A DNA stretch of 64,000 bases from the NCBI GenBank assembly GCA_033762895.1, contig JANRLE010000380.1, positions 12,243 to 76,242 of the forward strand, written 5' to 3'. Positions 1,262-40,018 of the stretch are shown here, in pieces. The translations under genes and the position numbers were made by a program. This DNA comes from Bryobacteraceae bacterium (GTDB lineage: Bacteria > Acidobacteriota > Terriglobia > Bryobacterales > Bryobacteraceae). Each line of letters opens with the position of its first letter. The first letter of the stretch is position 1. The notes beneath the pieces are model-generated. The model had not been told where the DNA came from, searched no databases, and was given only the letters and a program-made list of their open reading frames with translations.

Positions 1262-1287
1262 ATGGTGCATGGTATCGTGACTCGTAT

Positions 1288-16937: not shown

Positions 16938-18563
16938 CTAGCCGCTCATCGAACCCAGGAATTCCATATTGTTCCTCGTTTTGCTGAGTTTTTCAAGTAG
17001 TAATTCCATGGATTCTGTCGGAGACAATGGATTCAACACTTTACGGAGGATCCAAACCCGGTTCAGTTCCTCCCGCGGCATCAGAAGCTCTTCCTTACGG
17101 GTTCCGCTCTTGTTGATGTCGATGGCCGGGAACACGCGTTTATCGACAAGTTTACGGTCCAGATGGATCTCCATGTTGCCGGTACCCTTGAACTCTTCGA
17201 AAATCACGTCATCCATGCGGCTGCCGGTATCGATCAGCGCGGTCGCCACGATCGTCAGCGAGCCGCCTTCCTCAATGTTGCGCGCCGCGCCGAAAAATCG
17301 CTTCGGCCGCTGGAGCGCATTCGAATCGACACCGCCAGATAGTACCTTGCCCGATGGTGGCACTACGGTATTGTAGGCGCGCGCCAGGCGCGTGATCGAA
17401 TCAAGCAGGATCACCACATCCCGCTTGTGCTCCACCAGGCGCTTGGCCTTCTCGATCACCATTTCCGCCACCTGCACGTGGCGCGATGCCGGTTCATCGA
17501 AGGTGGAGCTGATCACTTCCCCCTTCACCGAGCGCTGCATGTCGGTCACTTCCTCAGGCCGTTCGTCAATCAGCAGAACGATCAGCACCACTTCGGGGTG
17601 GTTGGCCGTGACCGAGTTCGCAATGCTTTGCAGCAGCATCGTCTTGCCGGTGCGCGGCGGCGCCACAATCAGACCACGCTGCCCCTTGCCGATCGGCGTC
17701 AGCAGATCCATCACCCGGCCCGAATAGTTGTCGCGCGCCATCTCCAGCTTCAGCCGGCTGTTGGGGTACAGCGGCGTCAGGTTGTCGAAGAAGATCTTGT
17801 TGCGCGACTCCTCCGGCGGCTCGAAGTTGATCGCGTCCACCTTGATGAGCGCAAAGTACCGCTCACCTTCCTTGGGAGGGCGAATCTGGCCGGAGATCGT
17901 ATCTCCGGTACGAAGGTCGAAGCGGCGGATCTGCGACGGGGAAACGTACACGTCGTCGGGACCCGGCAGGTAGTTGTACTCGGGCGCCCGCAGGAATCCG
18001 AACCCGTCCGGCAGGCATTCGAGCACCCCTTCGGAGAAAATGAGTCCCGATTTTTCCGCCTGGGTCTGCAGGATCTTGAAGATCAACTCCTGCTTGCGCA
18101 TGCCGGCGACGCCAAGGACGCCCAGATCTTTGGCGATCTGGCTGAGCTTCTGAATGCTCATGTCCTTCAGTTCCACCAGATCGAGGGACGGGGCGCCGTT
18201 TTTGGCCTGCGGACGTTCCGTTCCCGCTGGCTTCTCGCCGGGGGCCCGGCCCTCAGGCGCCTTCGCCTCGACCGGCTTGGCCTCGGTCGGCTTCGTCTCA
18301 GCCGTTGGCGCCGGCTTAATCTCCACCGGCTTGGTTTCCGCGGGTTTGGCCTCGGCCGGTTTAAGATCGGCGGGCCTGGGATCGGCCGGTTTGGCCTCGG
18401 CGGCCTTCGGTTCTCCCGCCGCCGTCCTGCGCCGGGAGGGTCCGTCGGACGGCCTGGTTTCAGCCTTGGTCTCGGACTTTTCCGCAGGCTTGTCAGTCGC
18501 GGTGTCCTGCTCCGTTACAGCGATAGGCTGCTGGAGCTCCTGATTGTCTTTATCGTTTGCCAA
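16938..18563 (-). CDS. rho: transcription termination factor Rho with N-terminal K/P/A/E-rich extension
   Basis: Core motifs: [13 protein letters not shown] (Walker A), [16 protein letters not shown] and [21 protein letters not shown] propose a TTG start at 18563, preceded by AGGGAGTGAGGGA. The longer ATG ORF (to 18788) runs through engB. Confidence 0.85.
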
Positions 18564-19102
18564 ATTTCCCTCACTCCCTGGCCTGTGACGGCCGAGAAGG
18601 TCAGCGGTTCCGATGCGGGATCGGATTCCCGCAGGGCCGCCATCAAGTGCGCCCGCTCTTTCTGAGTCTTCAGCTTGTCGAACTTCGTCGCCACCACCAG
18701 GTACGGCCGGCCCGCGTACTCCAGCCATCGCTTCAGTTCCAGGTCCATCTCCATCCAACCCCGCCTGGCATCCAGCAGCAGCAGGCAAAGCCGCAAGCTT
18801 CCGCGATTCGTCAGGTAGCTGTCAATGAGCTTCTTCCAACCCTGTGTATGGGTTTTGGGAACTTTCGCGTAGCCATAGCCCGGCAGATCGACAAAGTGCC
18901 AGCGCTCATCCACCCGGTAGAACTGTATCGCCTGCGTGCGGCCGGGAGTCGAACTGGTTCGCGCAAGCCCCCGTTTGTCCACCAGGGAATTGATCAGGCT
19001 GGACTTGCCAACGTTGCTACGCCCCAAAAAGGCAATTTCCGGGAGCGATTCGGCCGGAAAAAGATCCGGCCTCACTGCTCCTATTATAAACTCTGCGGTC
19101 AC
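18515..19102 (-). CDS. engB: ribosome biogenesis GTP-binding protein YihA/YsxC (EngB)
   Basis: [14 protein letters not shown] (G1), DLPGYGYA (G3) and TKFDK (G4). Confidence 0.9.
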
Positions 19103-27458: not shown

Positions 27459-28292
27459 CTACGCCTTCTTGCGCCTGCGCTGCACGGCCAGGGCGCCCAG
27501 CAATCCAACCGCGGTAAGAGCGATGGTGCCCGGTTCCGGCGCGTCGGCAAACGGATCCGACGAGCCGCCGCCACCGCCGCCAAAGCCACTTCCCGTTCCA
27601 AGCAGATTGAGCAGGAACTGACGGTTGGAGCCTTCCGAGATCACCGAATTGGCCGCAATGTTGCCGCCAATCACGTAGATCCTGCCGGCATCGAGATTCT
27701 GATACTGAACCATGTACGGAAGCAGCGCCCCGCCGATGGCCACCGACATTCCGCCCATCACCGGGTAGATGTTGTTTGCCGCCAGCCCGCCGCCCTGGAT
27801 GCCCAGAACCGAAGAATCGGCTCCGCCAAGGGTGCCATGCACCTGCGTGCTGCCCAGCCCAAGCGTCTGATAATTCACGCTCATGCTGCTGCCAAGCCCG
27901 GACAGAATGCTGTTGATGAACAGGGCGTTGTAAACGCTCCCGTATGGCGTTGTGCCATCAGGGTTGGCGAAAACCAGCAGGTTGCCACCCCCGCGCACCC
28001 AATTCCCCAACGCGCCGATTTCAGAGGCCTGCGCGGCGGCGCCGGGATTGGAAATGATGAAATGTGTGTTGCCGGCCAGGCTCTGCTGCGAAATGAATTC
28101 CGCTGTCGGGTCGAAAGAATGACCCGCTACCGTGGCGGCGGCGTAAATTGAACTGTAGTTGCTCGACGTTGACCAGATCTCGGTTCCGGTTGTTCCGTAC
28201 CACTGCCCGACGCTGGCAGCGTAGGAAGCCGAACTCAATAGTACAAATCCCAGGAGCAACATCTGGGCTCTCTTTATTGCGGTGTTCCGCAT
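27459..28292 (-). CDS. PEP-CTERM sorting-domain protein
   Basis: C-terminus PEPGTIALTAVGLLGALAVQRRRKKA (PEP motif, TM helix, basic tail). Signal peptide MRNTAIKRAQMLLLGFVLLSSASYA. GGAGGGA lies upstream of the ATG at 28292. Confidence 0.8.
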   Translation of the reverse strand: MRNTAIKRAQMLLLGFVLLSSASYAASVGQWYGTTGTEIWSTSSNYSSIYAAATVAGHSFDPTAEFISQQSLAGNTHFIISNPGAAAQASEIGALGNWVRGGGNLLVFANPDGTTPYGSVYNALFINSILSGLGSSMSVNYQTLGLGSTQVHGTLGGADSSVLGIQGGGLAANNIYPVMGGMSVAIGGALLPYMVQYQNLDAGRIYVIGGNIAANSVISEGSNRQFLLNLLGTGSGFGGGGGGSSDPFADAPEPGTIALTAVGLLGALAVQRRRKKA

Positions 28293-28362
28293 TATTTTCC
28301 CTCCGAGGTTCTCCGACACTCCGAACACGAGCGGCTGCTTGCCCACTTGTATGACCTAAGCC

Positions 28363-28390
28363 AGTATAGCACTTTAGCGCGGGGATTCAA
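28363..28390 (-). promoter_or_regulatory. candidate sigma70-type promoter for the PEP-CTERM gene
   Basis: Minus strand reads TTGAAT, a 16-nt spacer, then TATACT, about 70 nt upstream of the ATG. Confidence 0.35.
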
Positions 28391-28594
28391 GGGGTACCAA
28401 GCAACAAATTGCTTAGGAGGCATCTCATTGATTACAAATGCTTTACGGGTACGCCGGAGGCCCCTACCCCCTTAGCCCAAACCCCTACACGTCTATGCGC
28501 CTCCCACATTCCCCCACTTCACCGCCCTACCACCCCCTCAGAGGGGTACCTAGTTTGAGGAAATCCACTTAGTCGGCCGCCTTACACCCACCCC

Positions 28595-29533
28595 TCACGC
28601 CGGCGCCGCAACACCCTCGGCCAGCAGCGCGCCCCAGTGAAATCCCGCCCCAAACGCTGTGAAGCACACCCTGCCACCCGCCCGGAAACCTTCGTTTTCC
28701 GCCCATTCCGACGCCGCAATGAGCATTGAAGCCGAAGACGTGTTGCCGTAGCGCGCGATGTTGGAGAAAAACCGGTCGCGCTCCACGCCAATCGCGTCCG
28801 CCACGCGGTCCATCAGGTTCTGGTTGGCCTGGTGCATCAGGTACGTGCCTACGTCGGAGGCGGCCAGCGAGAACCGCCTCAGGATCTCACTCACCGCACG
28901 CGGCATTTTGCGCGAGGCCTGCAGAATCACGCTGCGGCCGTTCATGAGGAAAGTGGAATCCTCAAGCCGCAGATCTTCGGAAAACGTCCCATCGGTTCCC
29001 ATGACCGAGCCCAGCACCCGCGCCCCGCCCCGCGAGGGGTGAATCAGGCACGCCCCGGCGCCGTCGCCAAACAGGATGCACACGCTCGGATCGAGCGGCT
29101 CAGTCAGCACAATGCGCGACATGATCTCGGCCGCCACCACCAGCACAGGCCCGCGCGAGGCCGCCACATCGGCCGCCAGCGACATTGCCACCAGCGCTCC
29201 GGCGCTCGCCACAGGCAGGTCCAGCGCCGGTGTCTCGGTCAAACCCAACCGGTTCGCCACCTGCGAGGCGGGTCCGGGAAACCGGCGCGGCGAGGTCGAG
29301 CACGACATCACGATCATGCCCAGTTCCGACGGCTTGCACCCGGCCTTCTCCAGACAGGATTCCGCCGCCGACACCGCCAGATCGATTACCGTTTCGGAAT
29401 CGACATAGCGGCGCTGCTCGATACCCGATACGTTGCGGATCCAGTCCGCCGTGCGGCCGATCCGCCCTGCCAGTTCCTCATTGCCGACAACACGCTCGGG
29501 AACTGCTGCGCCAAAACCTGCAATGAAGGCCAT
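28595..29533 (-). CDS. KASIII (FabH)-like enzyme with Ser in place of the active-site Cys
   Basis: Thiolase-fold KASIII pattern: LDLPVASAGAL (FabH has AACAGF here), MHQANQNL (His) and YGNTSSASM (Asn). The ATG at 29533 lies 1 nt after the carrier-protein stop. Confidence 0.8.
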   Translation of the reverse strand: MAFIAGFGAAVPERVVGNEELAGRIGRTADWIRNVSGIEQRRYVDSETVIDLAVSAAESCLEKAGCKPSELGMIVMSCSTSPRRFPGPASQVANRLGLTETPALDLPVASAGALVAMSLAADVAASRGPVLVVAAEIMSRIVLTEPLDPSVCILFGDGAGACLIHPSRGGARVLGSVMGTDGTFSEDLRLEDSTFLMNGRSVILQASRKMPRAVSEILRRFSLAASDVGTYLMHQANQNLMDRVADAIGVERDRFFSNIARYGNTSSASMLIAASEWAENEGFRAGGRVCFTAFGAGFHWGALLAEGVAAPA

Positions 29534-29534
29534 G

Positions 29535-29768
29535 TTACTGCCGCGCTTCGAGATACGACTCAATCCGTTCGACCGTGTCGAACTTGCGGGGGTTGAGGTC
29601 GGCATCGGGGATTTTCAGGCCGAACGCCTCCTCAAGCGCGCTCAGCATATCGGGCAGCGCGAAGGAGTCTATCAAACCGGAGTCAAATAGGGATTCATCC
29701 GCCGACGGCTCGATTTTCTTTTTCGATACCGTCTGAATGATTTCAATTATTTTCGCTCGCTTGTCCAT
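29535..29768 (-). CDS. DltC-like acyl/aminoacyl carrier protein
   Basis: 77-80 aa. LFDSGLIDSFALPDMLSALEEAFGLKIP closely mirrors DltC (EGLLDSFGTVELLLAIENRF) and includes the phosphopantetheine Ser. Start is ATG 29768 or GTG 29777. Confidence 0.75.
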   Translation of the reverse strand: MDKRAKIIEIIQTVSKKKIEPSADESLFDSGLIDSFALPDMLSALEEAFGLKIPDADLNPRKFDTVERIESYLEARQ

Positions 29769-31092
29769 TCGGTTCACGTCCTGGATTGAGGCTGACGAGC
29801 CGCTCCCGCACCTTCACAAACGTCCCATAATGCCTCGTCAGCTCCTCGAACATCGTCTGCCCGAGAAGCCGGTAGCCCGGACTCGTAAAGTGTACGCGAT
29901 CGTACTGACCGAGCCCTGCGAGGACCCAGTGTTGCATCGAACCTTTTCCACCCATCTTAGCCCGGAGATCAAGGAACGCGCACCCGGTGCCCAACGCGGC
30001 TTCACGTTGCGCCTCAATGATCATATCCAGCCTGTCATGGGAAATCCAGGACCGCCCGCGCCGCAACATCCGGTCCGGGGGGCCCAATACAAGCAGAGTC
30101 GCTGTCGGCGCGGCCTTGCGGAAACGGTTCAACAGCGTCGCGAACATCTCCCGGTAGGACTCTTTTGTCCAGTCCGGGCTGTCGGCCTCGTTGGTCCCGT
30201 AGGCAAACATCACCAGCGCCGGATTGCGCTTGGCGATGTGTCCGGCCAACAGGTCCTCGTTCCAGCGGAAGGCGATCGACGCCTGCGCGCCGTTAATGCC
30301 CAGCGTTTCGTAGGTCAATCCGCGCGCCGTTTCCGCCACCCAGCCATGCAAACGCACCGGCGCCCGGTCCCGCGTGCTCACATCAAAGCGATGCACCCCG
30401 GCCGGCACCTTGAAGGAGTAGTATCCGGGGCCCAACGGACCGTCCGTGGAGATCGTGTCCACATAGGCCCCGTTGTGGGAAAAGGAGAAAGAACCTCCGC
30501 CTGGCTGCCGCAGATAGAAAATTTCGATGGTTTCGCAATTCGCCTCCAGCGAAACCCATTCCTGCGCCCGGTTGGTGGACAAACTCACCCCACCCAAGCC
30601 GTAGTACCCGTTGCCGTAACGGCCCACCAGCCCGTCGGTGTGCCAGCCGCCCGAACTCCAGCTCCGCACGTCCAGACGCCGGTAGCTGTTCCACGGCCGC
30701 CCCGCCAAACTGAATCCGCTGCCCCCGTCGCCAAAGCGCGCCTGCAGGCCCGTCCGCAGCAGCCCCGGCCAGTCGTCGGCGGCGGTATGGGAGTCGCCAT
30801 AGTGCAGCACATGCACGCTCGGGTTTTCTCCCTGTTCGTAGCGGTAAAGCTGTTCGAAAAAAGGAACCAGCGCGCCCGCGTTTTCTATGTAAATCTCGGC
30901 CCCTTCGCTGAGAAATTGCGCCACCTGGTCCACGGCCCGCGCCCGCGCTTCGGCATCCACCGGCGGCGGCACAGACTTGCGGCGGGCCGGGGCGCGCCTT
31001 ACCACGGCGGGCTCAGCCTGTATGTTCGACAACGGCTCCAGAGCCGCCATCGAGACGAGGGCCGCCATCGTACATTTTGCGCTAAGGCTCAT
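29743..31092 (-). CDS. SGNH/GDSL hydrolase-fold protein (DltD/AlgJ-X-like candidate)
   Basis: VLHYGDSHTAAD (block I Ser), FAYGTNEA (block III) and DRVHFT (DxxH block V). N-terminal signal or anchor. Confidence 0.7.
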   Translation of the reverse strand: MSLSAKCTMAALVSMAALEPLSNIQAEPAVVRRAPARRKSVPPPVDAEARARAVDQVAQFLSEGAEIYIENAGALVPFFEQLYRYEQGENPSVHVLHYGDSHTAADDWPGLLRTGLQARFGDGGSGFSLAGRPWNSYRRLDVRSWSSGGWHTDGLVGRYGNGYYGLGGVSLSTNRAQEWVSLEANCETIEIFYLRQPGGGSFSFSHNGAYVDTISTDGPLGPGYYSFKVPAGVHRFDVSTRDRAPVRLHGWVAETARGLTYETLGINGAQASIAFRWNEDLLAGHIAKRNPALVMFAYGTNEADSPDWTKESYREMFATLLNRFRKAAPTATLLVLGPPDRMLRRGRSWISHDRLDMIIEAQREAALGTGCAFLDLRAKMGGKGSMQHWVLAGLGQYDRVHFTSPGYRLLGQTMFEELTRHYGTFVKVRERLVSLNPGREPNGQASENN

Positions 31093-31111
31093 CGAATGCC
31101 TGCATTCTCCA

Positions 31112-32533
31112 TCATAGGCGTGCCGGCGGCGCGGCGCTCACTCCATCCTTGACCGAGGCCAATTTGCGATTGTCGAGCAAACGGAGCTTGTATTTGTTAT
31201 ACCCATCAAACAGGGCCCGATACAACAGCCCCCCCACAATTCGCGCCCCCGCGGGCATCGGATGTATGAAATCGGCGCCCACCAGCCGGGGCTCGGCTTC
31301 ATACCAGCGGGCCATGGTTCCGGCTCCGCCCATTGCGGCAAACGTATTGAAAAAGGCGCAGCCGGTGTCGAGCGCCACGCGCTCCTGGATGGCCACCAGC
31401 CGCGGAATTGTGGGCACTGTGTCGATGCCGCCCGAGCCCGTACGATGGCCGCGGTCCATGGGGCTCATGATCAGAATCGCCGCCTGCGGAACGGCGGAAC
31501 GAACCCGGCGGATCACCTCGCGCAGCTCCTTTTCCGACACCCGGTCCACGAAATCGGCCTGTGTGCTTTCGTTGGTTCCGTAGTTGATAATCACCAGATC
31601 CGGGGCGTAATGCTGCAACTGTTCCCGCCAGTGAGCCTCGGAAATAAACCGCGCCAGCACCGAAACATAGGCGCCGTTCACGCCCAGGCTGTTGTAGATA
31701 ACGCCCGAGGCATCGGACTCAAACACCACCCCGAAAATACGCACCTGGCCGTTGGTGTTGCGCACATTGATCGAATCCGCCGCGACCGGAATCGGAAAGG
31801 AAGCAAAGCCGGAGGCTTCGGCCTTCGCCGCCGTATTTACCACCCCCAGCACCTTTCCCGCCGCCTCCACCTGGAACACGCCGCCGCCCGGCTGCTTCAG
31901 ATAGGCGATCTCCACGCGGGAATGTTTGCCCTTCTTCATTCGAATGCGGCTGAACGCCCCGCTCCATCCGCGGAAGCTCACCCCGCCGAGGCCGAACAGC
32001 CCGTCCCGCACGCCTCCCATGTTCGCCGGATCGATGGTCCAGCCGTCGCCTTCGATGTCCAATCCGCTGTGCTGGTACCAGGCCCAGGGCTTCGCCACCA
32101 GGCAAAAACCGTGACCGGCATCGCCGAAATGCTTCTGCAGCAGATCCCGCGCGTCGGAGGTGATCATGTCCGCAGTGGTGGGTGAATCGCCGTAGTGCAT
32201 CACGCGGACCTGCGTGCCGTCGCGCTTGCCCTCGGCCCGGTGCAGCGCGCGGAAAAAGCCGTCCAGGCTCTTGCCGGGATCAAGGACCGGATGCACCCGC
32301 GCCCCCCTGGTCTCAGGGCCCGCGCGCAGACCCGCGCCCACAGCGGTTTCGGGCTCAAGCTCAGGCGTCATCACGTTCCGGCGGTCGGTGAAGTGAAACA
32401 GGTTGGGCACCGAGCGCCAATCCATCACCTTGTAGTCCTTCAGCACAGGCATGTAATCCATCAGCGCCAGCAGCATCACGAAGCTGGCGATGGTCAAGGT
32501 TGGTTTGCCTGGAAGCCCGAACATACTGCGCAC
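31112..32533 (-). CDS. SGNH/GDSL hydrolase-fold protein, membrane anchored
   Basis: VMHYGDSPTTAD, INYGTNES and GADFIHP (DxxH). N-terminal TM helix LTIASFVMLLALM. Lies 6 nt downstream of the MBOAT gene. Confidence 0.7.
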   Translation of the reverse strand: MRSMFGLPGKPTLTIASFVMLLALMDYMPVLKDYKVMDWRSVPNLFHFTDRRNVMTPELEPETAVGAGLRAGPETRGARVHPVLDPGKSLDGFFRALHRAEGKRDGTQVRVMHYGDSPTTADMITSDARDLLQKHFGDAGHGFCLVAKPWAWYQHSGLDIEGDGWTIDPANMGGVRDGLFGLGGVSFRGWSGAFSRIRMKKGKHSRVEIAYLKQPGGGVFQVEAAGKVLGVVNTAAKAEASGFASFPIPVAADSINVRNTNGQVRIFGVVFESDASGVIYNSLGVNGAYVSVLARFISEAHWREQLQHYAPDLVIINYGTNESTQADFVDRVSEKELREVIRRVRSAVPQAAILIMSPMDRGHRTGSGGIDTVPTIPRLVAIQERVALDTGCAFFNTFAAMGGAGTMARWYEAEPRLVGADFIHPMPAGARIVGGLLYRALFDGYNKYKLRLLDNRKLASVKDGVSAAPPARL

Positions 32534-32539
32534 TACCTC

Positions 32540-33946
32540 TCAAAATCGCGTATAGATGAACGGCGCGGCCCCTGTGGCGGCGACGTAGTGGATGGCTAGC
32601 AACAGCAGCGCCATCGCGGCGGCCTGAACGTAAAAGGGCGTTCTGGCGAAACCCGAACTGCACCAATTCTCCCACTTTTCCGGCAGGTAGTGGGCCGCGG
32701 CGCCGATTCCCAGAATGATCAGAATCGGCGCGGAAATATTGGCGAAAGCGATCGTCCCCGACGCGATCCGCGCCAGCACGGCAAAGGCGCCCTCCATTGA
32801 ACCGGCCCGGAAGAAGATCCAGGCGAAGCAGACAAAGTGGAACGTCCCCAACAGCCGCAATCCCCGCGCCCACAATGCCGGATTCGGCTTCCGATTGCCG
32901 CGCCACACCTGCCAGGCGCGCGTTCCCGCCAGTGCCCCGCCATGCAGCAGCCCCCACACCACGTAGGTCCAGCTTGGCCCATGCCACAACCCGCCGATCA
33001 CCATCGTGATCACCAGATTCAGGTAGGTGAATACCTTGAACCTGGACCGCAGCCCGGGGAGCGAAAAATAGAGATAATCGCGCAGCCAGTTCGACAGCGT
33101 GATGTGCCACCGCCGCCAGAAATCCGGGATATTCTCGGCCATGTAGGGCGTCTTGAAGTTCACCGGCAAACGCAGCCCCAACAGCAGCGCCGACCCGATG
33201 GCGATATCCGTGTACCCGGAGAAATCGAAATAGAGCTGGAAGGCATAGGCGTAGACGGCAATCAGCACCTCAGCCGCCGTGTACAGATTCGGGAAATCGA
33301 ACACGCGGTTGACCAGGTTCACACCCAGGTAATCGGCGATCAGCAGCTTTTTGGTGAGCCCGATGCCGATCAGGTAAACCGCGCGGCCCCCATCCTCACC
33401 GCTCAGCGCCGGCTTCTTCTCAAACTGCGCGAGCAGCGAGGAGACGCGCGTGATGGGCCCGGCCAGCGTCGTCGGGAAAAAACTCACCGCCGCCAGGTGC
33501 GCCAGATAACTGTCCGTCGCCTTTGCATCCCGGCGATAGAGGTCCAGTGTATAGGTGAGCGACTGGAAGCAGTAAAACGAGATTCCCAGCGGGAAACTCC
33601 AATGCCACTCCGGCTTGGGCTCATTCGTCAGCGCCGAAAAGTTGTCCAGCAGGAACGGCATGTACTTCAGCGCCGCCAGCAGCCCCACGTTCAACAGCAC
33701 GCTGGCCGCCACCAGCGCGCGCCTCAAATGGACATGCTGGTATCGCGCCAGTCCCAACCCGATGGCGAAATCGCAACTCGACGCCAGCGGTATCAGGAAC
33801 AGGTAGAACAGGTCCCACTTGGCGTAGAAAAAGTAGTTGCCAAACAGGATCACGGCCAGGGACAACGCCCTGCTCCGCGACGCCGGCCAGTAGAGCAGGA
33901 ACACACCGGCCAGGAAGATAAAATACGCCGAGGACGACAACAGCAT
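32540..33946 (-). CDS. MBOAT family O-acyltransferase (AlgI/DltB-like)
   Basis: Polytopic membrane protein with FWRRWHITLSNWLRDYLYF (conserved MBOAT His region) and a second His in GGLWHG. Confidence 0.9.
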   Translation of the reverse strand: MLLSSSAYFIFLAGVFLLYWPASRSRALSLAVILFGNYFFYAKWDLFYLFLIPLASSCDFAIGLGLARYQHVHLRRALVAASVLLNVGLLAALKYMPFLLDNFSALTNEPKPEWHWSFPLGISFYCFQSLTYTLDLYRRDAKATDSYLAHLAAVSFFPTTLAGPITRVSSLLAQFEKKPALSGEDGGRAVYLIGIGLTKKLLIADYLGVNLVNRVFDFPNLYTAAEVLIAVYAYAFQLYFDFSGYTDIAIGSALLLGLRLPVNFKTPYMAENIPDFWRRWHITLSNWLRDYLYFSLPGLRSRFKVFTYLNLVITMVIGGLWHGPSWTYVVWGLLHGGALAGTRAWQVWRGNRKPNPALWARGLRLLGTFHFVCFAWIFFRAGSMEGAFAVLARIASGTIAFANISAPILIILGIGAAAHYLPEKWENWCSSGFARTPFYVQAAAMALLLLAIHYVAATGAAPFIYTRF

Positions 33947-34056
33947 GGGCGGGGGTCGCTGAGCCTTGATTATAGCGCCACCGGGTTCCCGCCGATGAAC
34001 GCCAGGAATGGAATTTGCCCGGCCGTAAACGCCCGCCGCGTGCGATCATCGATGGG

Positions 34057-34488
34057 ATGTCCCAGCAGAATTTCGAAAACCACAGCCAGACCGTTCCCGG
34101 CTACCTGGCGGCGGCGTTTGCCGTGATGGCCACCGTCATCGGCGCGGGAGTGAACCTCTACCTCTCCCTCGGAGACCACCAGCGCCTCTACAGCGCTTCG
34201 CTGATCCTCGTTCTGAGCGTCTGCGTCTTCTTCATCGGCTGGTATGCCCGCGTATTCCCCCTGAAAGCACAGGACCGCGCCATCCGCGCCGAAGAGAATC
34301 TTCGCCACTACGTGCTCACCGGGAAGCTGCTGGACCCACGCCTGGAGCCGCTGCAAATCGTCGCCCTGCGTTTTGCCTCCGATGACGAATTCCCCGCGCT
34401 GGCCAGGAAGGCCGCCGATGAGCGCATGGCGCCCAGGGATATCAAACGCGCCGTGCGTAATTGGCGCGCGGACACTTACCGCGTCTGA
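34057..34488 (+). CDS. hypothetical membrane protein (two predicted TM helices)
   Basis: MSQQNFENHSQTVPGYLAAAFAVMATVIGAGVNLYL... followed by a soluble tail. No catalytic motif recognised. Confidence 0.5.
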   Translation: MSQQNFENHSQTVPGYLAAAFAVMATVIGAGVNLYLSLGDHQRLYSASLILVLSVCVFFIGWYARVFPLKAQDRAIRAEENLRHYVLTGKLLDPRLEPLQIVALRFASDDEFPALARKAADERMAPRDIKRAVRNWRADTYRV

Positions 34489-34504
34489 CCCTTCAGGAAA
34501 CGGC

Positions 34505-35869
34505 CTACGCCAACCATTCGCGGATCACGTTACCATGCACGTCCGTCAGCCGGTAGTCGCGCCCTGAATAACGGTAGGTCAGCTTCGTATGGTCGAGCCC
34601 CAATAAGTGCAGCGCCGTGGCGTGGAGATCATGGGGACTTACCCGCTTATCCACGGCCTTATACCCGAAGTCATCCGTGGCGCCATATGTCTGGCCGCCC
34701 CTGATGCCGCCGCCGGCCAGCAGGATGGAGTACCCGGGCGGATTGTGGTCCCGCCCGCGGCCCACCTTCTCGGTGCCCGAATTCTGGATCATCGGCGTAC
34801 GGCCGAACTCGCTGCCGACGATGACCAGCGTCTGTTCGAACAGGCCCCGCGCCTTCAGGTCTTCCACCAGGGCCGCAATGGGCCCATCCGACCTTCTGGC
34901 GTGATGCTTCTGCATGATGATGTCGTCGTGGCTGTCCCAGGGCTGTCCGTCGCCATAATAGACCTGCACGACGCGCACCCCGGCTTCCACCAGCCGCAGC
35001 GCCATCAGACACCCTCGTCCGAACTCCCCGGCGCCGTACCGCGCGCGGACCGTTTCGGGCTCCTTTGTGAGATCGAAGATTCCCGGCGCCTCGGTCTGCA
35101 TCTTAAATGCCGTCTCCATCGCCGCGATGTTCGCCTCCAGCCTGGGATCATAACCCACTCGCTGAAGAAACGACGCATCCATCTTCGCCAATAACCCCAA
35201 CTGCCGCTCCTGCTGCTCAGGCGTATAACTTTTATTCGCGATGTCCTGGATCAGCTTATCGGCCGTATCGGCATCGTTGCGGATCTGCGCGCCTTCATAA
35301 GCGGTCGGCAGAAACGCCGATGACCATAACCGGGCGCCTCCCACCGGCTGGCCCGGGCACATCACCACGTAACCCGGCAGATTCTGATTCTCCGTGCCCA
35401 GCCCGTAAGTAACCCACGATCCGAATGAGGGCCGCGAGCCGCCGCGCAGCGCATGCCCGGTATTCATCATCAACATCGACGGCAGGTGATTGATCGAGTC
35501 CGAGTACATCGAGCGCACCACCAGAAAATCGTCGATCCGCTCGCCGATCTTCGGAAAGATGCCGCTCACTTCGATCCCGCTGGCGCCGTACTTACGGAAG
35601 GGGAACGGCGACTTCATCAACCCGCCGGAAGCCCGGTCCGTCTTGACCTTGGGGCCCGGCATCGGCTGGCCGTCGCGTTTGTCCAACTCCGGCTTGGGGT
35701 CGAAGCTGTCCACGTGCGAGAGTCCGCCGTTGAGATAAAGAAAGATGACGTGCTTTGCCTTGGGCGCAAAGTGCGGCTTGCCCGTCGAGGCGGCGTGAAG
35801 CGAATCGCCAAGTCCCACCAGCCCGAATCCGGCGCCCATCCATTGAACCGCTTTCCGTCGTGTGATCAT
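34505..35869 (-). CDS. DUF1501 family protein (sulfatase/alkaline-phosphatase-like fold), Tat signal
   Basis: MITRRKAVQWMGAGFGLVGL twin-arginine N-terminus, FLYLNGGLSHVDSFDPKP and C-terminal GRDHNPPGY...DLHATALHLLG, typical of DUF1501. Confidence 0.85.
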   Translation of the reverse strand: MITRRKAVQWMGAGFGLVGLGDSLHAASTGKPHFAPKAKHVIFLYLNGGLSHVDSFDPKPELDKRDGQPMPGPKVKTDRASGGLMKSPFPFRKYGASGIEVSGIFPKIGERIDDFLVVRSMYSDSINHLPSMLMMNTGHALRGGSRPSFGSWVTYGLGTENQNLPGYVVMCPGQPVGGARLWSSAFLPTAYEGAQIRNDADTADKLIQDIANKSYTPEQQERQLGLLAKMDASFLQRVGYDPRLEANIAAMETAFKMQTEAPGIFDLTKEPETVRARYGAGEFGRGCLMALRLVEAGVRVVQVYYGDGQPWDSHDDIIMQKHHARRSDGPIAALVEDLKARGLFEQTLVIVGSEFGRTPMIQNSGTEKVGRGRDHNPPGYSILLAGGGIRGGQTYGATDDFGYKAVDKRVSPHDLHATALHLLGLDHTKLTYRYSGRDYRLTDVHGNVIREWLA

Positions 35870-35884
35870 CGGTATGCTCCTCCC

Positions 35885-38548
35885 TTAGCGGACGGCGAAA
35901 AACTCGCTTGCGGCGAACAACATCTGCGTATACCTCGCCATCGGCTCCTTTTGCAGGAACGTGAGGGCGGCGTCGATTTCGTTGGCGGCCGGCGGCCGGC
36001 TATAGACAAGTTCGAATGCGCGTTCGATGCGTCTGCGGGGGTCGGCGCCGGCTTCCAGTTCCAGACGCGCGGCCAGCGCTTCCGCCTGGCGAATCACAAA
36101 CGGATTGTTCAGAAAGTACAACCGCTGCAGCGGTCCCACGGTAACGGTACGCTCCTCGGAGTGGCTCTTGGGATCGGGAAAATCAAAGAGCGTCATCGTA
36201 CGGTCGGGACTCGTGCGCGCCACCACGGCATAGAGCGTGCGGCGGTTGTTCTTTTCGTGAAACGGACGCGCCGGTCCGCCAAGTCTCGAGTCCAACGCGC
36301 CGGACACGGCCAGCATGGCGTCACGCAACGTCTCAGCGTCCAGGCGGTCCAGCCCGGGATAGCGCCACAACAGGCTGTTGGCGGCATCCTTCTCCTGGCT
36401 TGCCGGCACGATCCGCGAGCTGCGCTGATAGGCTGCCGACAGCACGATCTTACGGTCAATCGCCTTGATTGACCAGCCCTTGTCCACAAACTCCGCCGCC
36501 AGCCAGTCCAATAACTCGGGATGAGTCGGGCGCTCGCCCAATTGGCCGAAGTTACTCGCGCTGGCGACAATGCCGCGGCCAAAGCGCCATTGCCAGAGCC
36601 GGTTCACCATCACCCGCGCGGTCAGCGGATTGCCGGGCGCGGTGATGCTGCGCGCCAGCTCCAGCCGTCCGCTGCCCTGCCGGAAACGCTCCGGCTCGCC
36701 TTCGCTCAGAATCTGCAGGAACCGGCGCGGCGCCACGGCGCCCAGGTTTGTTTTCTCCCCACGGATGGCGATACGCGCGTCTTTGAGCTTGCTTGCGTCC
36801 CGGTAGGCGTGCAGGAACGGATAGGGCTTGGGCACCGCCTTCTGCAGCCGGGCAAACTCCTCGCGCTCGCGTTTGAGAAAGTCCACCCACACGCCGCCCA
36901 GGTAGCGGTTGACCTCCTTGGGATCGACATAATAGACGCCGGCGGCGTGGTCGAAGCCCTGCCTGCGGCCGGGACTCTCGGTGAGGTCGCGCCACAGGTA
37001 ATATTTCAACGGATCGAGAAACTCCAGGTTGGTTGCCAAAAGCGTCCGCTGGTCGCGCACTCCCTTGGCGCCGCCAAGTTTCACATAGTTGCGGTCGTCA
37101 AGCGCCTGTTTCTCATCGCGGATGGAGAACAAGGTCTGCTCGAAGCGTCCCGCCAGGCGCCGCGCCTCTTCCACCCCTCCGCCCCGTTTGAGAAACGACA
37201 CCCATTCGTCCAGGTACGGGTGTTCGCGTTCGGCGGAATCGATGTAGCGGATCCAGCGGTCCAGCACCGCCGCGTCCAGTGAAGCCTGTTTAGCCACATC
37301 GGCCACGGCGCCGGCAGCGCCCGTCTTCACCGTCCACGCCGCCACCAGGTAGTCGGCCGTCCGTTCCATCAGGACTTCGGTCAACTGGCCGTTGAGTTTC
37401 TCCAGGAACAAGTCGATCTTCAGCTTCTGCGCCGCCACCCGCGCGGTGGCTTCCTGAAACGCCTTCACCTCGGACTCGGGCGCCAGGGGAATTTCATGCA
37501 CCTCGGTACTGTCGAAAACCCCCTGCAGCGAATAATAGTCGCTTTGCGGAATGGGGTCGAACTTATGATCGTGGCACTGCGCGCATCCCACGGTGAGCCC
37601 CAACAGCGCCCGGCCGGTGATGTCGACACGGTCGTCGTCGCGATCGAGCAGCGCATGGAAACCGAGCGCGGGCAGAAGCTTGTTGCGGTCCGGCTCGTCC
37701 ATCAGATCAGCGGCAAGTTGCGCGGTGACAAAACGGTCGTAGGGCATGTCTTTGTTGAATGCCTCCACTACCCAATCCCGGTACCGCCAGGCGTTGGCCA
37801 GCGGATCGTCGCGCAAAGCGGCCGAGCGCCCGTCGGCGTAGCGGGCTATATCCAGCCAGCGCCGGGCCATTCGCTCGCCGTAGTGTGGAGAACCGAGCAA
37901 CCGGTCCACAACCTTTGCAAACGCGTCCGGCGAGTGATCTGCGGTAAATGCGGCCACGTCTTCCGGCGTGGGCGGTAAACCGATGAGGTCCAGTGACGCC
38001 CGCCGGATCAATGTCCGCCTGTCGGCCGCGGGCGCCGTCGTCAGACCGGCCTTTTCGATGGCGGCCTGCAGGAACCGGTCGATTTCATTGCCCCGCTCCG
38101 CCTTGCCAACAGGAACCGGAGGACGTTTCACCGGCTGGAATGACCAGAAGCGGCGCGCTTCCGGGCGAATCGCTCCGGCCGGTGATTCATTCGTCTGCCG
38201 GGTTTGGGGCCAGACGGCGCCCTCGGCAATCCACTTCTCCAGTTCCGCCACATCGGCCGCCGGCAGCGCCTCACTGGGCGGCATCATCAGGTCCTTGGAT
38301 TCGCGTTTCACCGCGCGCATCAGCAGGCTCGCCGCCGCATCGCCCGGCTTGACCGCCGCGCCCCGTGCGCCGCCCTTCAGAATGGATTCGCGGGAGTCCA
38401 GCCTGAGCCCGCCCATCTTCGCCGCCGTATGGCAGGAGTAGCACTTGGCGGCGAGTAGCGGCCGGATCTTACTCTCGAAACGGTCCTCGGCCGGCGGCGC
38501 GGCGCAAAGCACAGCCGCGGCGGCGAAAAGAAGATACAGACGTGCCAT
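35885..38548 (-). CDS. PSCyt1/DUF1549/DUF1553 domain protein
   Basis: True start MARLYLLFAAAAVLCA at 38548 (or MIATGN at 38566), then a CYSCH haem-binding-like motif, DRFV...LIGLPPTPEDV (DUF1549) and a C-terminal DUF1553-like region. The ORF-track extension to 39601 is antisense to the sulfatase gene. Confidence 0.85.
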   Translation of the reverse strand: MARLYLLFAAAAVLCAAPPAEDRFESKIRPLLAAKCYSCHTAAKMGGLRLDSRESILKGGARGAAVKPGDAAASLLMRAVKRESKDLMMPPSEALPAADVAELEKWIAEGAVWPQTRQTNESPAGAIRPEARRFWSFQPVKRPPVPVGKAERGNEIDRFLQAAIEKAGLTTAPAADRRTLIRRASLDLIGLPPTPEDVAAFTADHSPDAFAKVVDRLLGSPHYGERMARRWLDIARYADGRSAALRDDPLANAWRYRDWVVEAFNKDMPYDRFVTAQLAADLMDEPDRNKLLPALGFHALLDRDDDRVDITGRALLGLTVGCAQCHDHKFDPIPQSDYYSLQGVFDSTEVHEIPLAPESEVKAFQEATARVAAQKLKIDLFLEKLNGQLTEVLMERTADYLVAAWTVKTGAAGAVADVAKQASLDAAVLDRWIRYIDSAEREHPYLDEWVSFLKRGGGVEEARRLAGRFEQTLFSIRDEKQALDDRNYVKLGGAKGVRDQRTLLATNLEFLDPLKYYLWRDLTESPGRRQGFDHAAGVYYVDPKEVNRYLGGVWVDFLKREREEFARLQKAVPKPYPFLHAYRDASKLKDARIAIRGEKTNLGAVAPRRFLQILSEGEPERFRQGSGRLELARSITAPGNPLTARVMVNRLWQWRFGRGIVASASNFGQLGERPTHPELLDWLAAEFVDKGWSIKAIDRKIVLSAAYQRSSRIVPASQEKDAANSLLWRYPGLDRLDAETLRDAMLAVSGALDSRLGGPARPFHEKNNRRTLYAVVARTSPDRTMTLFDFPDPKSHSEERTVTVGPLQRLYFLNNPFVIRQAEALAARLELEAGADPRRRIERAFELVYSRPPAANEIDAALTFLQKEPMARYTQMLFAASEFFAVR

Positions 38549-38611
38549 GTTGCCTGTCGCAATCATATCGCACGGCGGCGTGTGATAATTTTGGACTCGG
38601 TACAAAACACC

Positions 38612-40018
38612 ATGTGGAATCGAAGAAGCTTTCTGATGGCGGCGGGCTCCAGCGCCATCGCCGCGGCCTGGCAGCGCGAGCAGCGCCGCAACGTGCTGTT
38701 CATCGCCGCCGACGATCTGAACCATCGTTTTAGCACCTACGGCGAAAAGATCGTCCCCACGCCGAACCTGGATGCCATCGCCAGCCGCGGGGTGCGCTTT
38801 GACCGCGCCTACTGCCAGTTCCCGCTCTGCAGCCCGTCGCGCACCTCCGTGATGACCGGGCTCTCTCCGGACGCCACCGGTGTCTACGATCTGCAGAAAC
38901 ATTTCCGCAGCTCGCGTCCTGAAGCCGTCACACTCGGCCAGGCGTTCCAGAAGAACGGCTATTTTGTGGCCCGCGCCGGCAAGATCTACCATTACGGCAA
39001 CCCCGGCCAGATTGGCACCGACGGTCTGGACGACGCACCCACCTGGATGAAGCGCGTCAACCCGGCCGGCGTCGACAAGACCAAAGAAGAGCAGCTGATC
39101 CGCAATGTGACGCCGCAGCGCAAGGGCCTGGGCAGTTCCCTGAGCTTCCTTGCCTCCGATGCCGGCGACAGTGAACATACCGACGGCATGGTGGCCGCCG
39201 AAATCGTGCAGATGATGGAGCAGCATCGCAACGATGCCTGGTTCCTCGGCGCGGGATTCTATAAGCCCCACTGCCCCTATGTCGCACCGAAAAAATATTT
39301 CGACATGGTCCCCAAGGACCGGCTGAAACTGGTGCCCTTCGAGGAATGGGAGATGTCCATCGCCCCCAAACCCGCCTACTGGACCAACCCCGCCAACTGG
39401 GGCGTAAGTGAAAAGGATCGCCTGGACGCCATGCAGGCTTACTTTGCCACCATCCTGTTTCTCGACGCCAATATCGGCCGCCTGCTGGATGCCCTGAAGC
39501 GTACGGGCCAGCAGGATCGCACCACCATCGTATTCTGGAGCGATCACGGCTACGGACTCGGCGAACACGGCCAGTGGATGAAGCAAACGGTGTTCGAACA
39601 CTCGGCGCGCTCGCCTTTGCTGATGTGCGGCGCCGGAGTGAAGGCACGCGGCAAGGGATGCGGCAGAACCGTCGAGTTTCTGGACATCTATCCCACGCTC
39701 GCCGATCTGTGCGGACTCAAAGACGTTCCGCGCGGCTTACACGGAACCTCGCTTCGCCCTCTGCTTGACAATCCTGCCGCTCCCTGGGATCGCCCGGCCA
39801 TCACGCAGGTACACCGCGGCAAGCTGCGCGGCTATTCCATCCGCACCGGCCAGCATCGTTACTCCATGTGGGACGAAGGCCGCGAGGGTGAGGAGTTGTA
39901 TGACTACGCAAGCGATCCACGCGAGTTGAAAAACCTGGCGCGCGACGCCGCGGCGTCCGGCCTCAAGGCGAAACTGCGGACCCGCCTGGACGCCATCATC
40001 AAGACGCGGCAGGTGTGA
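38612..40018 (+). CDS. sulfatase (iduronate-2-sulfatase-like), Tat/Sec signal
   Basis: MWNRRSFLMAAGSSAIAAA, NVLFIAADDLN and CQFPLCSPSRTSVMTG (CxPxR formylglycine motif). Confidence 0.85.
   Translation: MWNRRSFLMAAGSSAIAAAWQREQRRNVLFIAADDLNHRFSTYGEKIVPTPNLDAIASRGVRFDRAYCQFPLCSPSRTSVMTGLSPDATGVYDLQKHFRSSRPEAVTLGQAFQKNGYFVARAGKIYHYGNPGQIGTDGLDDAPTWMKRVNPAGVDKTKEEQLIRNVTPQRKGLGSSLSFLASDAGDSEHTDGMVAAEIVQMMEQHRNDAWFLGAGFYKPHCPYVAPKKYFDMVPKDRLKLVPFEEWEMSIAPKPAYWTNPANWGVSEKDRLDAMQAYFATILFLDANIGRLLDALKRTGQQDRTTIVFWSDHGYGLGEHGQWMKQTVFEHSARSPLLMCGAGVKARGKGCGRTVEFLDIYPTLADLCGLKDVPRGLHGTSLRPLLDNPAAPWDRPAITQVHRGKLRGYSIRTGQHRYSMWDEGREGEELYDYASDPRELKNLARDAAASGLKAKLRTRLDAIIKTRQV

Follow-up and report, generated by a model that had tools for sequence, protein, structure and literature searches.

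Here we describe a five-gene operon on the minus strand (28595-33946) of a 64-kb window, the 64,000-nucleotide stretch of contig JANRLE010000380.1 from a Bryobacteraceae bacterium (Acidobacteriota) that was analyzed as a whole. The operon encodes an MBOAT (membrane-bound O-acyltransferase), two SGNH proteins (SGNH-A and SGNH-B), a small DltC-like carrier protein, and a KASIII-like enzyme in which a serine occupies the position of the catalytic cysteine of FabH (Ser-type KASIII). As judged from sequence, it is a PatA/PatB/Ape1-like cluster with a Dlt-style carrier input, and is neither a member of the Dlt systems nor a canonical peptidoglycan O-acetylation (OAP) cluster. We propose that the operon acylates a periplasmic cell-envelope glycan, with the carrier and the Ser-type KASIII feeding the MBOAT and its SGNH partners, and we give this full relay a probability of about 50%.

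Analysis of the open reading frames of the window confirmed five co-directional genes. These are the MBOAT (32540-33946, 468 amino acids), SGNH-A (31112-32533, 473 amino acids), SGNH-B (29743-31092, 449 amino acids), the carrier (29535-29768, 77 amino acids from its ATG, with an alternative GTG start at 29777), and the Ser-type KASIII (28595-29533, 312 amino acids). The MBOAT and SGNH-A genes are separated by 6 nt and the two SGNH genes by 19 nt; the end of SGNH-B and the start of the carrier overlap by 26 nt, and a single nucleotide lies between the carrier stop and the KASIII start. A 336-amino-acid reading frame that would extend the KASIII gene to 29605 was rejected, as it overlaps the carrier gene and the length of homologues (308-315 amino acids) favors the start at 29533. 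A first-pass annotation of this DNA had described five minus-strand genes packed with gaps or overlaps of at most about 26 nt, and both the coordinates and the spacing agree with it. It had also recognized the five families correctly: profile searches matched the MBOAT to Pfam MBOAT (PF03062, E 1e-27), SGNH-A and SGNH-B to Lipase_GDSL_2 (E 1e-16 and 1e-14, respectively), the carrier to PP-binding (35.8 bits, E 1e-8, above the cut-off of 20.8), and the KASIII-like enzyme to ACP_syn_III (E 2.5e-15) and ACP_syn_III_C (E 1.5e-24). Its more specific reports of complete GDS/GTNE/DxxH blocks in both SGNH proteins and of a modifiable serine in the carrier were borne out as well, as described below.

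The MBOAT aligned with the DltB structures 6bug and 8jem over residues 120-380 (phmmer E 8e-30). Its catalytic histidine is His322 of an LWHG motif (codon 32981-32983), which aligns with DltB His336. The histidine motif singled out previously, WHITLS, is present at residues 280-285, but His281 is the second conserved histidine and not the canonical catalytic one. The NCBIfam model LTA_dltB (TIGR04091) scored the protein at 184.9 bits, below its cut-off of 375. By hydropathy, the C-terminus contains two extra hydrophobic helices past the DltB-like core, followed by the motif FIYTRF at residues 463-468, of which Tyr465 is encoded by codon 32552-32554. A C-terminal end of the form P-F-[ILVM]-Y-x-x-F was found in all 67 of the 67 full-length MBOAT orthologues recovered. 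It has been reported that FxYxxF is an acyl-shuttle hexapeptide whose tyrosine is acylated in DltX and PatA, as shown experimentally, and that MBOATs other than those of Dlt systems carry this motif as part of their own chain, on two additional helices (PMC12148441). Because it carries the fused C-terminal acyl-shuttle motif, the MBOAT is PatA/AlgI-type and not DltB-type. A single-sequence AlphaFold2 model of the protein (pLDDT 43.9, pTM 0.24) was unusable for placing Tyr465 or any carrier-docking surface.

All of the SGNH motifs were located: GDS at 115-117, GTNE at 319-322 and DFIH at 421-424 in SGNH-A, with Ser117, Asn321, Asp421 and His424 as the predicted catalytic residues, and GDS at 99-101, GTNE at 299-302 and DRVH at 398-401 in SGNH-B, with Ser101, Asn301, Asp398 and His401. 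Over 97% of its length, SGNH-A is 100% identical to a database protein, the start of which lies 12 residues later, from a Bryobacteraceae metagenome-assembled genome, in agreement with an acidobacterial origin of the window. The two proteins are paralogues (32% identity, BLASTP E 3e-44), and the catalytic Ser/Gly/Asn/Asp/His blocks are invariant across both. Each matched the O-acetyl-peptidoglycan esterase Ape1 over the whole catalytic domain and the module inserted between blocks I and II; for SGNH-A the match was to Neisseria meningitidis Ape1 (4k3u, phmmer E 3.9e-18), and for SGNH-B to the same structure (E 2.4e-24) and to that of Campylobacter jejuni (8gkd, E 5e-14). In an AlphaFold2 model of SGNH-A (pLDDT 83.7), residues 9-27 form a helix and residues 31-79 a linker of low confidence, after which comes an SGNH domain into which a beta-sandwich is inserted. 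Foldseek matched this model to the N. meningitidis and C. jejuni Ape1 structures with TM-scores of 0.80-0.88 (target-normalized), and to everything else at 0.40 or less. PatB, DltD, AlgJ and AlgX were not among its top 50 Foldseek matches. Neither SGNH protein matched the PatB structures 7TJB and 8TLB in phmmer at E values up to 1, and neither matched the DltD family in Pfam or NCBIfam. SGNH-A is, according to its model, a membrane-anchored Ape1-fold protein, and is likely to be the transferase partner of the MBOAT. SGNH-B, whose orthologues begin with a hydrophobic signal-like N-terminus followed by a Lys/Pro/Ala-rich linker, is a secreted esterase or else another transferase. The order of the first three genes therefore matches the layout patA (MBOAT), patB (anchored SGNH), ape1 (secreted SGNH), with an Ape1-fold protein in the PatB slot.

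The carrier contains the motif GLIDSF, in which Ser35 (codon 29664-29666) is the predicted site of phosphopantetheine attachment. Its best matches in the PDB were the DltC chains 8jf2_F and 6bug_A (E 4e-8), in gapless alignments that place Ser35 on Ser35 of DltC. The best NCBIfam match was likewise a DltC model (PRK05087, 46.6 bits versus a cut-off of 68), and a second DltC model scored 24.6 bits versus 52.35; the protein fits DltC better than AcpP, and lies under every NCBIfam equivalog cut-off, those for acyl carrier proteins (ACPs) included. The family motif SLF[DE]SGL[LI]DSFALPD...LNPRKFD is conserved in 48 loci. Thus, the carrier appears most similar to DltC, which is the only carrier known to serve an MBOAT.

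The remaining enzyme had been described as a FabH-like protein completing the set. This description stands with respect to its thiolase fold and its ACP_syn_III family, but the protein is a Cys-to-Ser derivative and not a normal FabH. When it was aligned to FabH structures, with which it shares 35-40% identity, Ser110 (codon 29204-29206) fell on the catalytic Cys, and His234 and Asn264 were retained. The Ser-His-Asn triad was present in 120 of 120 close homologues, and Ser replaced the catalytic Cys in each of the 122 clade members compared. An exhaustive search of 1.84 billion cluster representatives placed Ser-type sequences (motif LPxASAGS) on top at 230-321 bits, and the Cys-type FabHs that came next scored sharply lower, at no more than about 180 bits. 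The Ser-type enzymes form one clade within FabH in a tree.

We then compared the residues of 122 Ser-type with those of 120 Cys-type FabHs, using E. coli numbering and an E. coli sequence that was checked against 1hn9. The Ser-type clade carries the substitutions R36V, F213I, K214L/M and K257A, as well as R249N in 121 of the 122 members, and keeps Trp32, Phe87, Phe157, Leu189, His244, Asn247 and Asn274 along with the oxyanion-loop glycines. In E. coli FabH, Arg249 and its basic neighbors form the docking site for AcpP, a patch that comprises Arg36, Lys214, Arg249 and Lys256/257, His244 and Asn274 drive the decarboxylation of malonyl-ACP, and Phe87 restricts the primer pocket to short chains; the C112S mutant of this enzyme loses condensation and keeps decarboxylation alone. 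This pattern of substitution and retention indicates that the Ser-type KASIII would form no thioester acyl-enzyme and would not dock a housekeeping ACP in the canonical manner, and that it would keep the chemistry acting on a phosphopantetheine-bound malonyl or short acyl group.

The same residues bear on the simplest account of the last two genes, namely that they are ordinary fatty-acid or polyketide initiation genes, a FabH-like enzyme and its carrier, lying by chance beside an unrelated MBOAT-SGNH cluster. In keeping with this account, the score of the enzyme against the FabH subfamily model PRK09352 (243.6 bits) is close to the cut-off of 249, although below it, and its homologues are annotated in their sources as ketoacyl-ACP synthase III; the score against TIGR00747 (203 bits versus 292) is also below the cut-off. 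However, the Cys-to-Ser replacement extends to all 122 sequences, the docking residues Arg36, Lys214, Arg249 and Lys257 are replaced, and the carrier fits DltC over AcpP and reaches none of the ACP equivalog cut-offs. The annotated neighbors of the cassette include no further fab or PKS genes, and the linkage to the MBOAT and SGNH genes is conserved. We therefore consider such a chance juxtaposition extremely improbable, and the reading of the pair as an ordinary FabH with AcpP is ruled out by the active-site and docking residues.

We scanned genomes with an alignment of the SGNH proteins, taking one genome per species. The scan returned more than 451 confirmed relatives, of which the best 80 loci were inspected and sorted by tblastn with the five window proteins. 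All of these 80 loci are from Acidobacteriota, mostly Bryobacterales, and the cultured Paludibaculum fermentans is among them. The five genes occur in the same order, with differing flanks, in 47 of the best 80 species-level loci, and a few more loci are truncated versions; the first-pass grouping of the genes into one cassette is thus matched by their co-conservation. The overlap between SGNH-B and the carrier is exactly 26 nt in 27 of the 47 complete loci, and the median gap between the carrier and the KASIII gene is 3 nt. The five-gene grouping is far beyond chance. Adenylate-forming enzymes, the absence of which had also been pointed out, were not found in the 64-kb window (tblastn with three diverse queries, and Pfam annotation of the neighbors), and a gene of this kind lay within 10 kb of only 2 of about 88 loci.

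Natural variants of the cassette show how its parts group. In split cassettes the MBOAT and SGNH-A remain together, as do SGNH-B, the carrier and the KASIII gene. The split lies between SGNH-A and SGNH-B in L082 (11375-12694, an IS110-family transposase), L031 (11438-13767), L057 (4136-7088) and L068 (11222-12469), and in a Bryobacter subclade one or two VWA-domain genes occupy this place. Two loci (L039 and L073) keep the MBOAT, SGNH-A and a VWA gene, with SGNH-B, the carrier and the KASIII gene not nearby. In 14 carrier-less loci, a gene for an SH3_3-domain protein of 430-470 amino acids lies directly after SGNH-B in place of the carrier and KASIII genes (L062:12767-14173; also L051, L053, L054, L063-L065, L067, L069-L071, L078, L084 and L086). 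This gene was found in none of the five-gene loci and not in the window, and the two arrangements look mutually exclusive. SH3_3-type domains often bind peptidoglycan.

It has been previously shown for PatAB and Dlt that an acyl group passes from a cytoplasmic phosphopantetheine thioester through the MBOAT histidine to an acyl-Tyr, then to an acyl-Ser of the SGNH protein and finally to a glycan hydroxyl (PMC12148441). In the relay that we propose, the MBOAT, SGNH-A and SGNH-B (module 1) would work as a PatA/PatB/Ape1 peptidoglycan O-acetylation cluster, and the carrier and Ser-type KASIII (module 2) would be a cytoplasmic generator of the donor. The holo-carrier, with its phosphopantetheine on Ser35, would receive a short acyl group, which is most likely acetyl. 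The group could pass from acyl-CoA through acyl-O-Ser110 to the carrier, a route with precedents in the KSIII-like enzymes that load discrete ACPs and in the Ser nucleophile of DpsC (PMC9573744), or it could arise by His234/Asn264-dependent decarboxylation of a malonyl-carrier that would be loaded by the housekeeping FabD; a FabH that has lost nothing but its cysteine would be expected to decarboxylate. The acyl-carrier would then dock on the MBOAT as DltC does on DltB, and the MBOAT would accept the phosphopantetheine-linked acyl thioester at its cytoplasmic tunnel. His322 would transfer the acyl group to the enzyme's own Tyr465 in FIYTRF, on the periplasmic side, from which it would pass to the catalytic Ser of SGNH-A and on to the glycan as an ester. 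SGNH-B would trim the modification in the manner of Ape1 or serve as a second transferase.

Within this scheme, we infer the delivery of the carrier-bound acyl group to the MBOAT, the activity of the Ser-type KASIII and the identity of the acyl group. It has been reported that acetyl-ACP serves as a preferred acetyl donor for GlmU, an enzyme of envelope synthesis (PMC8666670). A non-acetyl acyl group is possible, although the evidence does not point to it. Peptidoglycan would be the leading candidate for the acceptor, because both SGNH proteins have the Ape1 fold, the cassette stands alone, and the sister clade encodes an SH3 protein.

One variant of the relay has the Ser-type KASIII condensing acyl-CoA with a malonyl-carrier to give a beta-ketoacyl-carrier (for example acetoacetyl), such that the glycan would receive a C4 or longer non-acetyl acyl group. 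The loss of condensation in C112S E. coli FabH argues against it, as does the lack of a reductase or dehydratase gene alongside the carrier-KASIII pair in the profile annotation of the cassette and its neighbors, and we know of no beta-ketoacyl esters on glycans. The variant would give a reason for having a carrier in the first place, acetyl-CoA being directly usable, and it is compatible with the invariance of His234 and Asn264, residues of both decarboxylation and condensation, and with the retention of Trp32, the primer-pocket Phe87, Phe157 and Leu189. DpsC, the nucleophile of which is a serine, shows that such a nucleophile is compatible with KSIII chemistry (PMC9573744). The DpsC triad, however, is Ser-His-His, with a His for the Asn of FabH (PMC9573744), whereas the His-Asn pair of FabH is unchanged here. 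On balance we regard condensation as improbable.

Several observations weigh against the relay as a whole, and the first of these concern the contact between the carrier and the MBOAT. The residues of DltB that contact DltC have been identified as Met302, Val305, Ile306, Met309, Lys312 and Arg317 (PMC11035591). At these positions the window MBOAT has Phe, Pro, Gly, Ser, Lys and Leu, respectively, and only K312 is kept; conversely, Met36, Val39 and Glu40 of DltC are Phe36, Pro39 and Asp40 in the carrier, and an acid-Lys pair alone is preserved. In addition, 16 carrier-less loci with sufficient downstream DNA keep SGNH-A and SGNH-B and have no carrier or KASIII gene. The MBOAT is present in 15 of these, and in the remaining one the contig ends before the MBOAT; in four further loci the MBOAT and SGNH-A occur alone. 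In a tree of the MBOATs, the 16 full-length sequences from MBOAT-SGNH-A-SGNH-B loci without a carrier group as one clade, which is nested among the sequences of five-gene loci. No position told the MBOATs of the five-gene and the carrier-less loci apart at the thresholds used (overlap of at most 10% between the groups and conservation of at least 70% within each), and the segment that aligns to helix HC of DltB, which binds DltC, is equally conserved in both groups. Since no alignment position separates the two groups of loci, the MBOAT has no signature of carrier dependence. Furthermore, PatA-type MBOATs with the same fused motif take acetyl-CoA directly as the donor (PMC12148441), and both SGNH proteins resemble the known esterase Ape1 and not the known transferases PatB, DltD, AlgJ and AlgX. 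The acyl group and the acceptor, as noted above, are assigned by inference.

A further point of this kind comes from the carrier-KASIII pair outside the cassette. In a sister subclade, the Ser-type KASIII is always preceded by a member of the same carrier family (52-56% identity), and these pairs adjoin genes for FliW, CsrA, FliD and flagellin, with no MBOAT nearby; they also lie beside genes for GDP-mannose 4,6-dehydratase (Gmd), a second epimerase/reductase and an RmlA-like nucleotidyltransferase (L170:5171-11625; L169:1239-10978; L008; L171; L089:47-3397). Because the pair occurs without an MBOAT by flagellar and GDP-sugar genes, it is not dedicated to MBOATs. The flagellar-context loci look like a flagellin or surface-glycan modification island with the same donor module. 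In light of this, we tentatively suggest that the DltC-like carrier and the Ser-type KASIII are a new, portable two-gene donor module that would supply acetyl or another short acyl group on the carrier without ATP-dependent adenylation, and which would make a PatA-type MBOAT carrier-dependent here and would serve flagellin or surface-glycan acylation elsewhere.

The association between the two genes is close: in all but one of the contexts examined, the Ser-type KASIII gene directly follows a gene of this carrier family. Upstream of a solo Ser-type KASIII gene (L004:10001-10948; also L005-L007), the product of which shares 48% identity with the window enzyme, 840 nt contain no carrier gene, and at a distance of about 4 kb there is an AMP-binding gene on the opposite strand; these contigs are labelled Zixibacteria or Terriglobales. 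A metagenome scan with an alignment of the Ser-type enzymes recovered seven full-length Ser-type sequences among its best 80 loci, the rest being canonical FabHs. More distantly related carriers occur on plasmids of Shinella (L172:4962-9697) and Streptomyces (L174:5439-7186). These nearest annotated plasmid relatives share 40-44% identity with the carrier across the C-terminal 55 residues, have adenylate-forming enzymes as neighbors, and are part of a separate small carrier-based pathway. From these plasmid relatives we conclude that the thiolase-fold partner is the unusual feature for this type of carrier. The Shinella gene is also flanked by genes for an asparagine synthase and an NAD synthase-like protein.

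The weakening observations fit either of two readings: an MBOAT that takes any phosphopantetheine thioester, with the carrier as an optional feeder, or modules that are merely co-expressed. The second of these amounts to two co-transcribed but biochemically separate systems, in which the MBOAT would use acetyl-CoA directly, as PatA does, and work with the Ape1-like pair to O-acetylate and deacetylate peptidoglycan or a different glycan, and the carrier and KASIII would serve some other acylation in the cytoplasm, such as that of a nucleotide sugar or a lipid-linked precursor, under shared regulation. It draws on the fused FxYxxF that places the MBOAT in the acetyl-CoA-using PatA class, on the whole clade that does without carrier and KASIII in cis and has no discriminating MBOAT residue, on the unconserved DltC-contact positions, and on the pairs that lie beside Gmd, epimerase, RmlA-like and flagellar filament genes without an MBOAT. 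Yet the cassette contains no gene for a cytoplasmic acyltransferase or a sugar-nucleotide enzyme capable of using the acyl-carrier. A conserved overlap of 26 nt joins the start of the carrier gene to the end of a gene for a periplasmic SGNH protein, the five-gene set is kept in 47 species as its flanks change, and in split cassettes the carrier and KASIII genes remain with SGNH-B. Moreover, the nearest characterized relative of the carrier is DltC, which serves an MBOAT. We consider the separation into two systems unlikely, and retain the relay as our preferred reading.

How this operon relates to known systems is best seen part by part. As in the PatA/PatB/Ape1 clusters of Gram-negative bacteria, the MBOAT combines its catalytic His with an FxYxxF at the C-terminus, borne on additional helices, next come an anchored and then a secreted SGNH protein, and no polysaccharide-synthesis genes were found among the annotated neighbors flanking the cassette; both SGNH proteins also share with Ape1 an inserted beta-sandwich of the carbohydrate-binding type (CBM35-like). 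Unlike those clusters, the operon has an Ape1 paralogue in the slot of the PatB-type transferase, adds a carrier and a Ser-type KASIII where PatA uses acetyl-CoA with no carrier, and is found in Acidobacteriota. In the OAP system as described, the acceptor is O-6 of MurNAc in peptidoglycan. It is not a canonical OAP cluster because it has no PatB-type transferase and has a carrier.

The DltABCDX system of Gram-positive D-alanylation similarly encodes a small carrier with an MBOAT and an SGNH-family protein, and the logic that we propose, from carrier thioester to MBOAT, Tyr, SGNH protein and envelope polymer, is the same. In contrast to Dlt, there is no DltA ligase and the carrier has a thiolase-fold enzyme as its neighbor; the MBOAT itself bears the shuttle motif, which in Dlt lies on a DltX microprotein; and the DltC-contacting residues of DltB are mostly unconserved. 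The first-pass annotation had called the cassette Dlt-like, which holds for the carrier, the closest relative of which is DltC, but not for the MBOAT, which is PatA/AlgI-type, or the SGNH proteins, which are Ape1-type. Because it lacks DltA, its MBOAT is not DltB-type, its SGNH proteins are not DltD-type, and its DltB and DltC scores are under the equivalog cut-offs, the operon is not a member of the Dlt systems. The AlgI/AlgJ/AlgF/AlgX and WssH/WssI systems also combine a fused-motif MBOAT with two periplasmic SGNH-like proteins, one anchored and one soluble; here, in contrast, there is no AlgF, the SGNH proteins are Ape1-type and not AlgJ/AlgX-type, no synthase or export genes are adjacent, and a carrier module is present.

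The Ser-type KASIII shares its thiolase fold with FabH relatives, its pairing with a dedicated carrier with ChlB3 (which pairs with ChlB2), and the position of its Ser nucleophile with DpsC; like the KSQ/CLF decarboxylating primers, it has lost the Cys and kept the decarboxylation residues. It differs from all of these in its Ser-His-Asn triad, which is Cys-His-Asp in ChlB3 and CerJ and Ser-His-His in DpsC (PMC9573744), and Gln-His-His in KSQ, and from FabH itself in that the Cys-His-Asn triad is not kept and the basic ACP-docking patch is gone. Its context, envelope or flagellar glycan genes, also sets it apart from the polyketide KSIII relatives, among which ChlB3 and CerJ transfer acyl groups to a discrete ACP or to a sugar hydroxyl. 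The proposed use of an acetyl-carrier as an acetyl donor for the envelope resembles that of the malonyl-ACP decarboxylases MadA and MadB, which supply acetyl-ACP to GlmU, although those enzymes have a hot-dog fold, act on the housekeeping AcpP and occur in Proteobacteria only. Full-text literature searches turned up no account of an MBOAT-SGNH cluster that includes a carrier and a KASIII, in agreement with the earlier remark that the architecture was not recognized as a characterized pathway, and a mechanistic paper of 2025 describes the MBOAT/SGNH pathways other than Dlt as being without a carrier protein (PMC12148441).

On one side of the window cassette lie the housekeeping genes rho, lon, clpX, that for trigger factor, and metK; on the other are genes for DUF6526, DUF1501, PSCyt/DUF1553 and a sulfatase. 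The DUF6526 gene (34015-34488, plus strand) is divergent from the MBOAT. The DUF1501 gene and the PSCyt1/PSCyt2/DUF1553 gene are paired on the minus strand (34505-39601), an arrangement typical of Planctomycetes and Acidobacteria; the 1238-amino-acid reading frame called for the PSCyt gene probably begins upstream of the true start, as its first 340 or so residues overlap the sulfatase gene on the opposite strand. A gene 248 nt downstream of the cassette (27459-28346, minus strand) encodes a protein with a PEP-CTERM sorting signal and a weak DUF4350 match, and has its own promoter-like site. It was considered as a sixth component or acceptor and rejected, being kept in the seven closest loci only, together with metK synteny; it probably lies outside the system. 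A scan for promoters and terminators over 28200-34600 gave counts not above those of shuffled sequences, and an Rfam scan of the window gave no match at the gathering threshold. Elsewhere in the window, the Rho termination factor (16938-18788, minus strand) has an N-terminal extension of about 200 residues ahead of its Rho_N domain. ARAGORN called one 83-nt tRNA-Asn (2562-2644, plus strand) within a long open reading frame (1237-3780), which may be a false call, Rfam being silent there.

Bacterial MBOAT-SGNH systems now fall into two classes, the carrier-dependent Dlt systems, in which adenylation loads DltC, and the carrier-free Pat, Alg and Wss systems, which use acyl-CoA. The operon described here joins parts of both classes with a third kind of loader, a FabH without its Cys. 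If the carrier does feed the MBOAT, the operon would become the first MBOAT-SGNH system besides Dlt to be supplied by a carrier, and would bridge the Dlt and Pat/Alg classes in evolution; the choice of donor in MBOAT-SGNH enzymes would be modular, and the SH3-swapped clade would offer a natural comparison for the carrier dependence of an MBOAT. It would also define a function for the Ser-type KASIII family, which is labelled as ordinary FabH in hundreds of soil Acidobacteria. Paludibaculum fermentans is a cultured organism that carries the operon, at about 119.6-125.0 kb of NZ_JBPJAQ010000001.1 (L052). For this abundant and poorly characterized soil phylum, the operon would represent an unstudied modification of the cell envelope, possibly the O-acylation of peptidoglycan.

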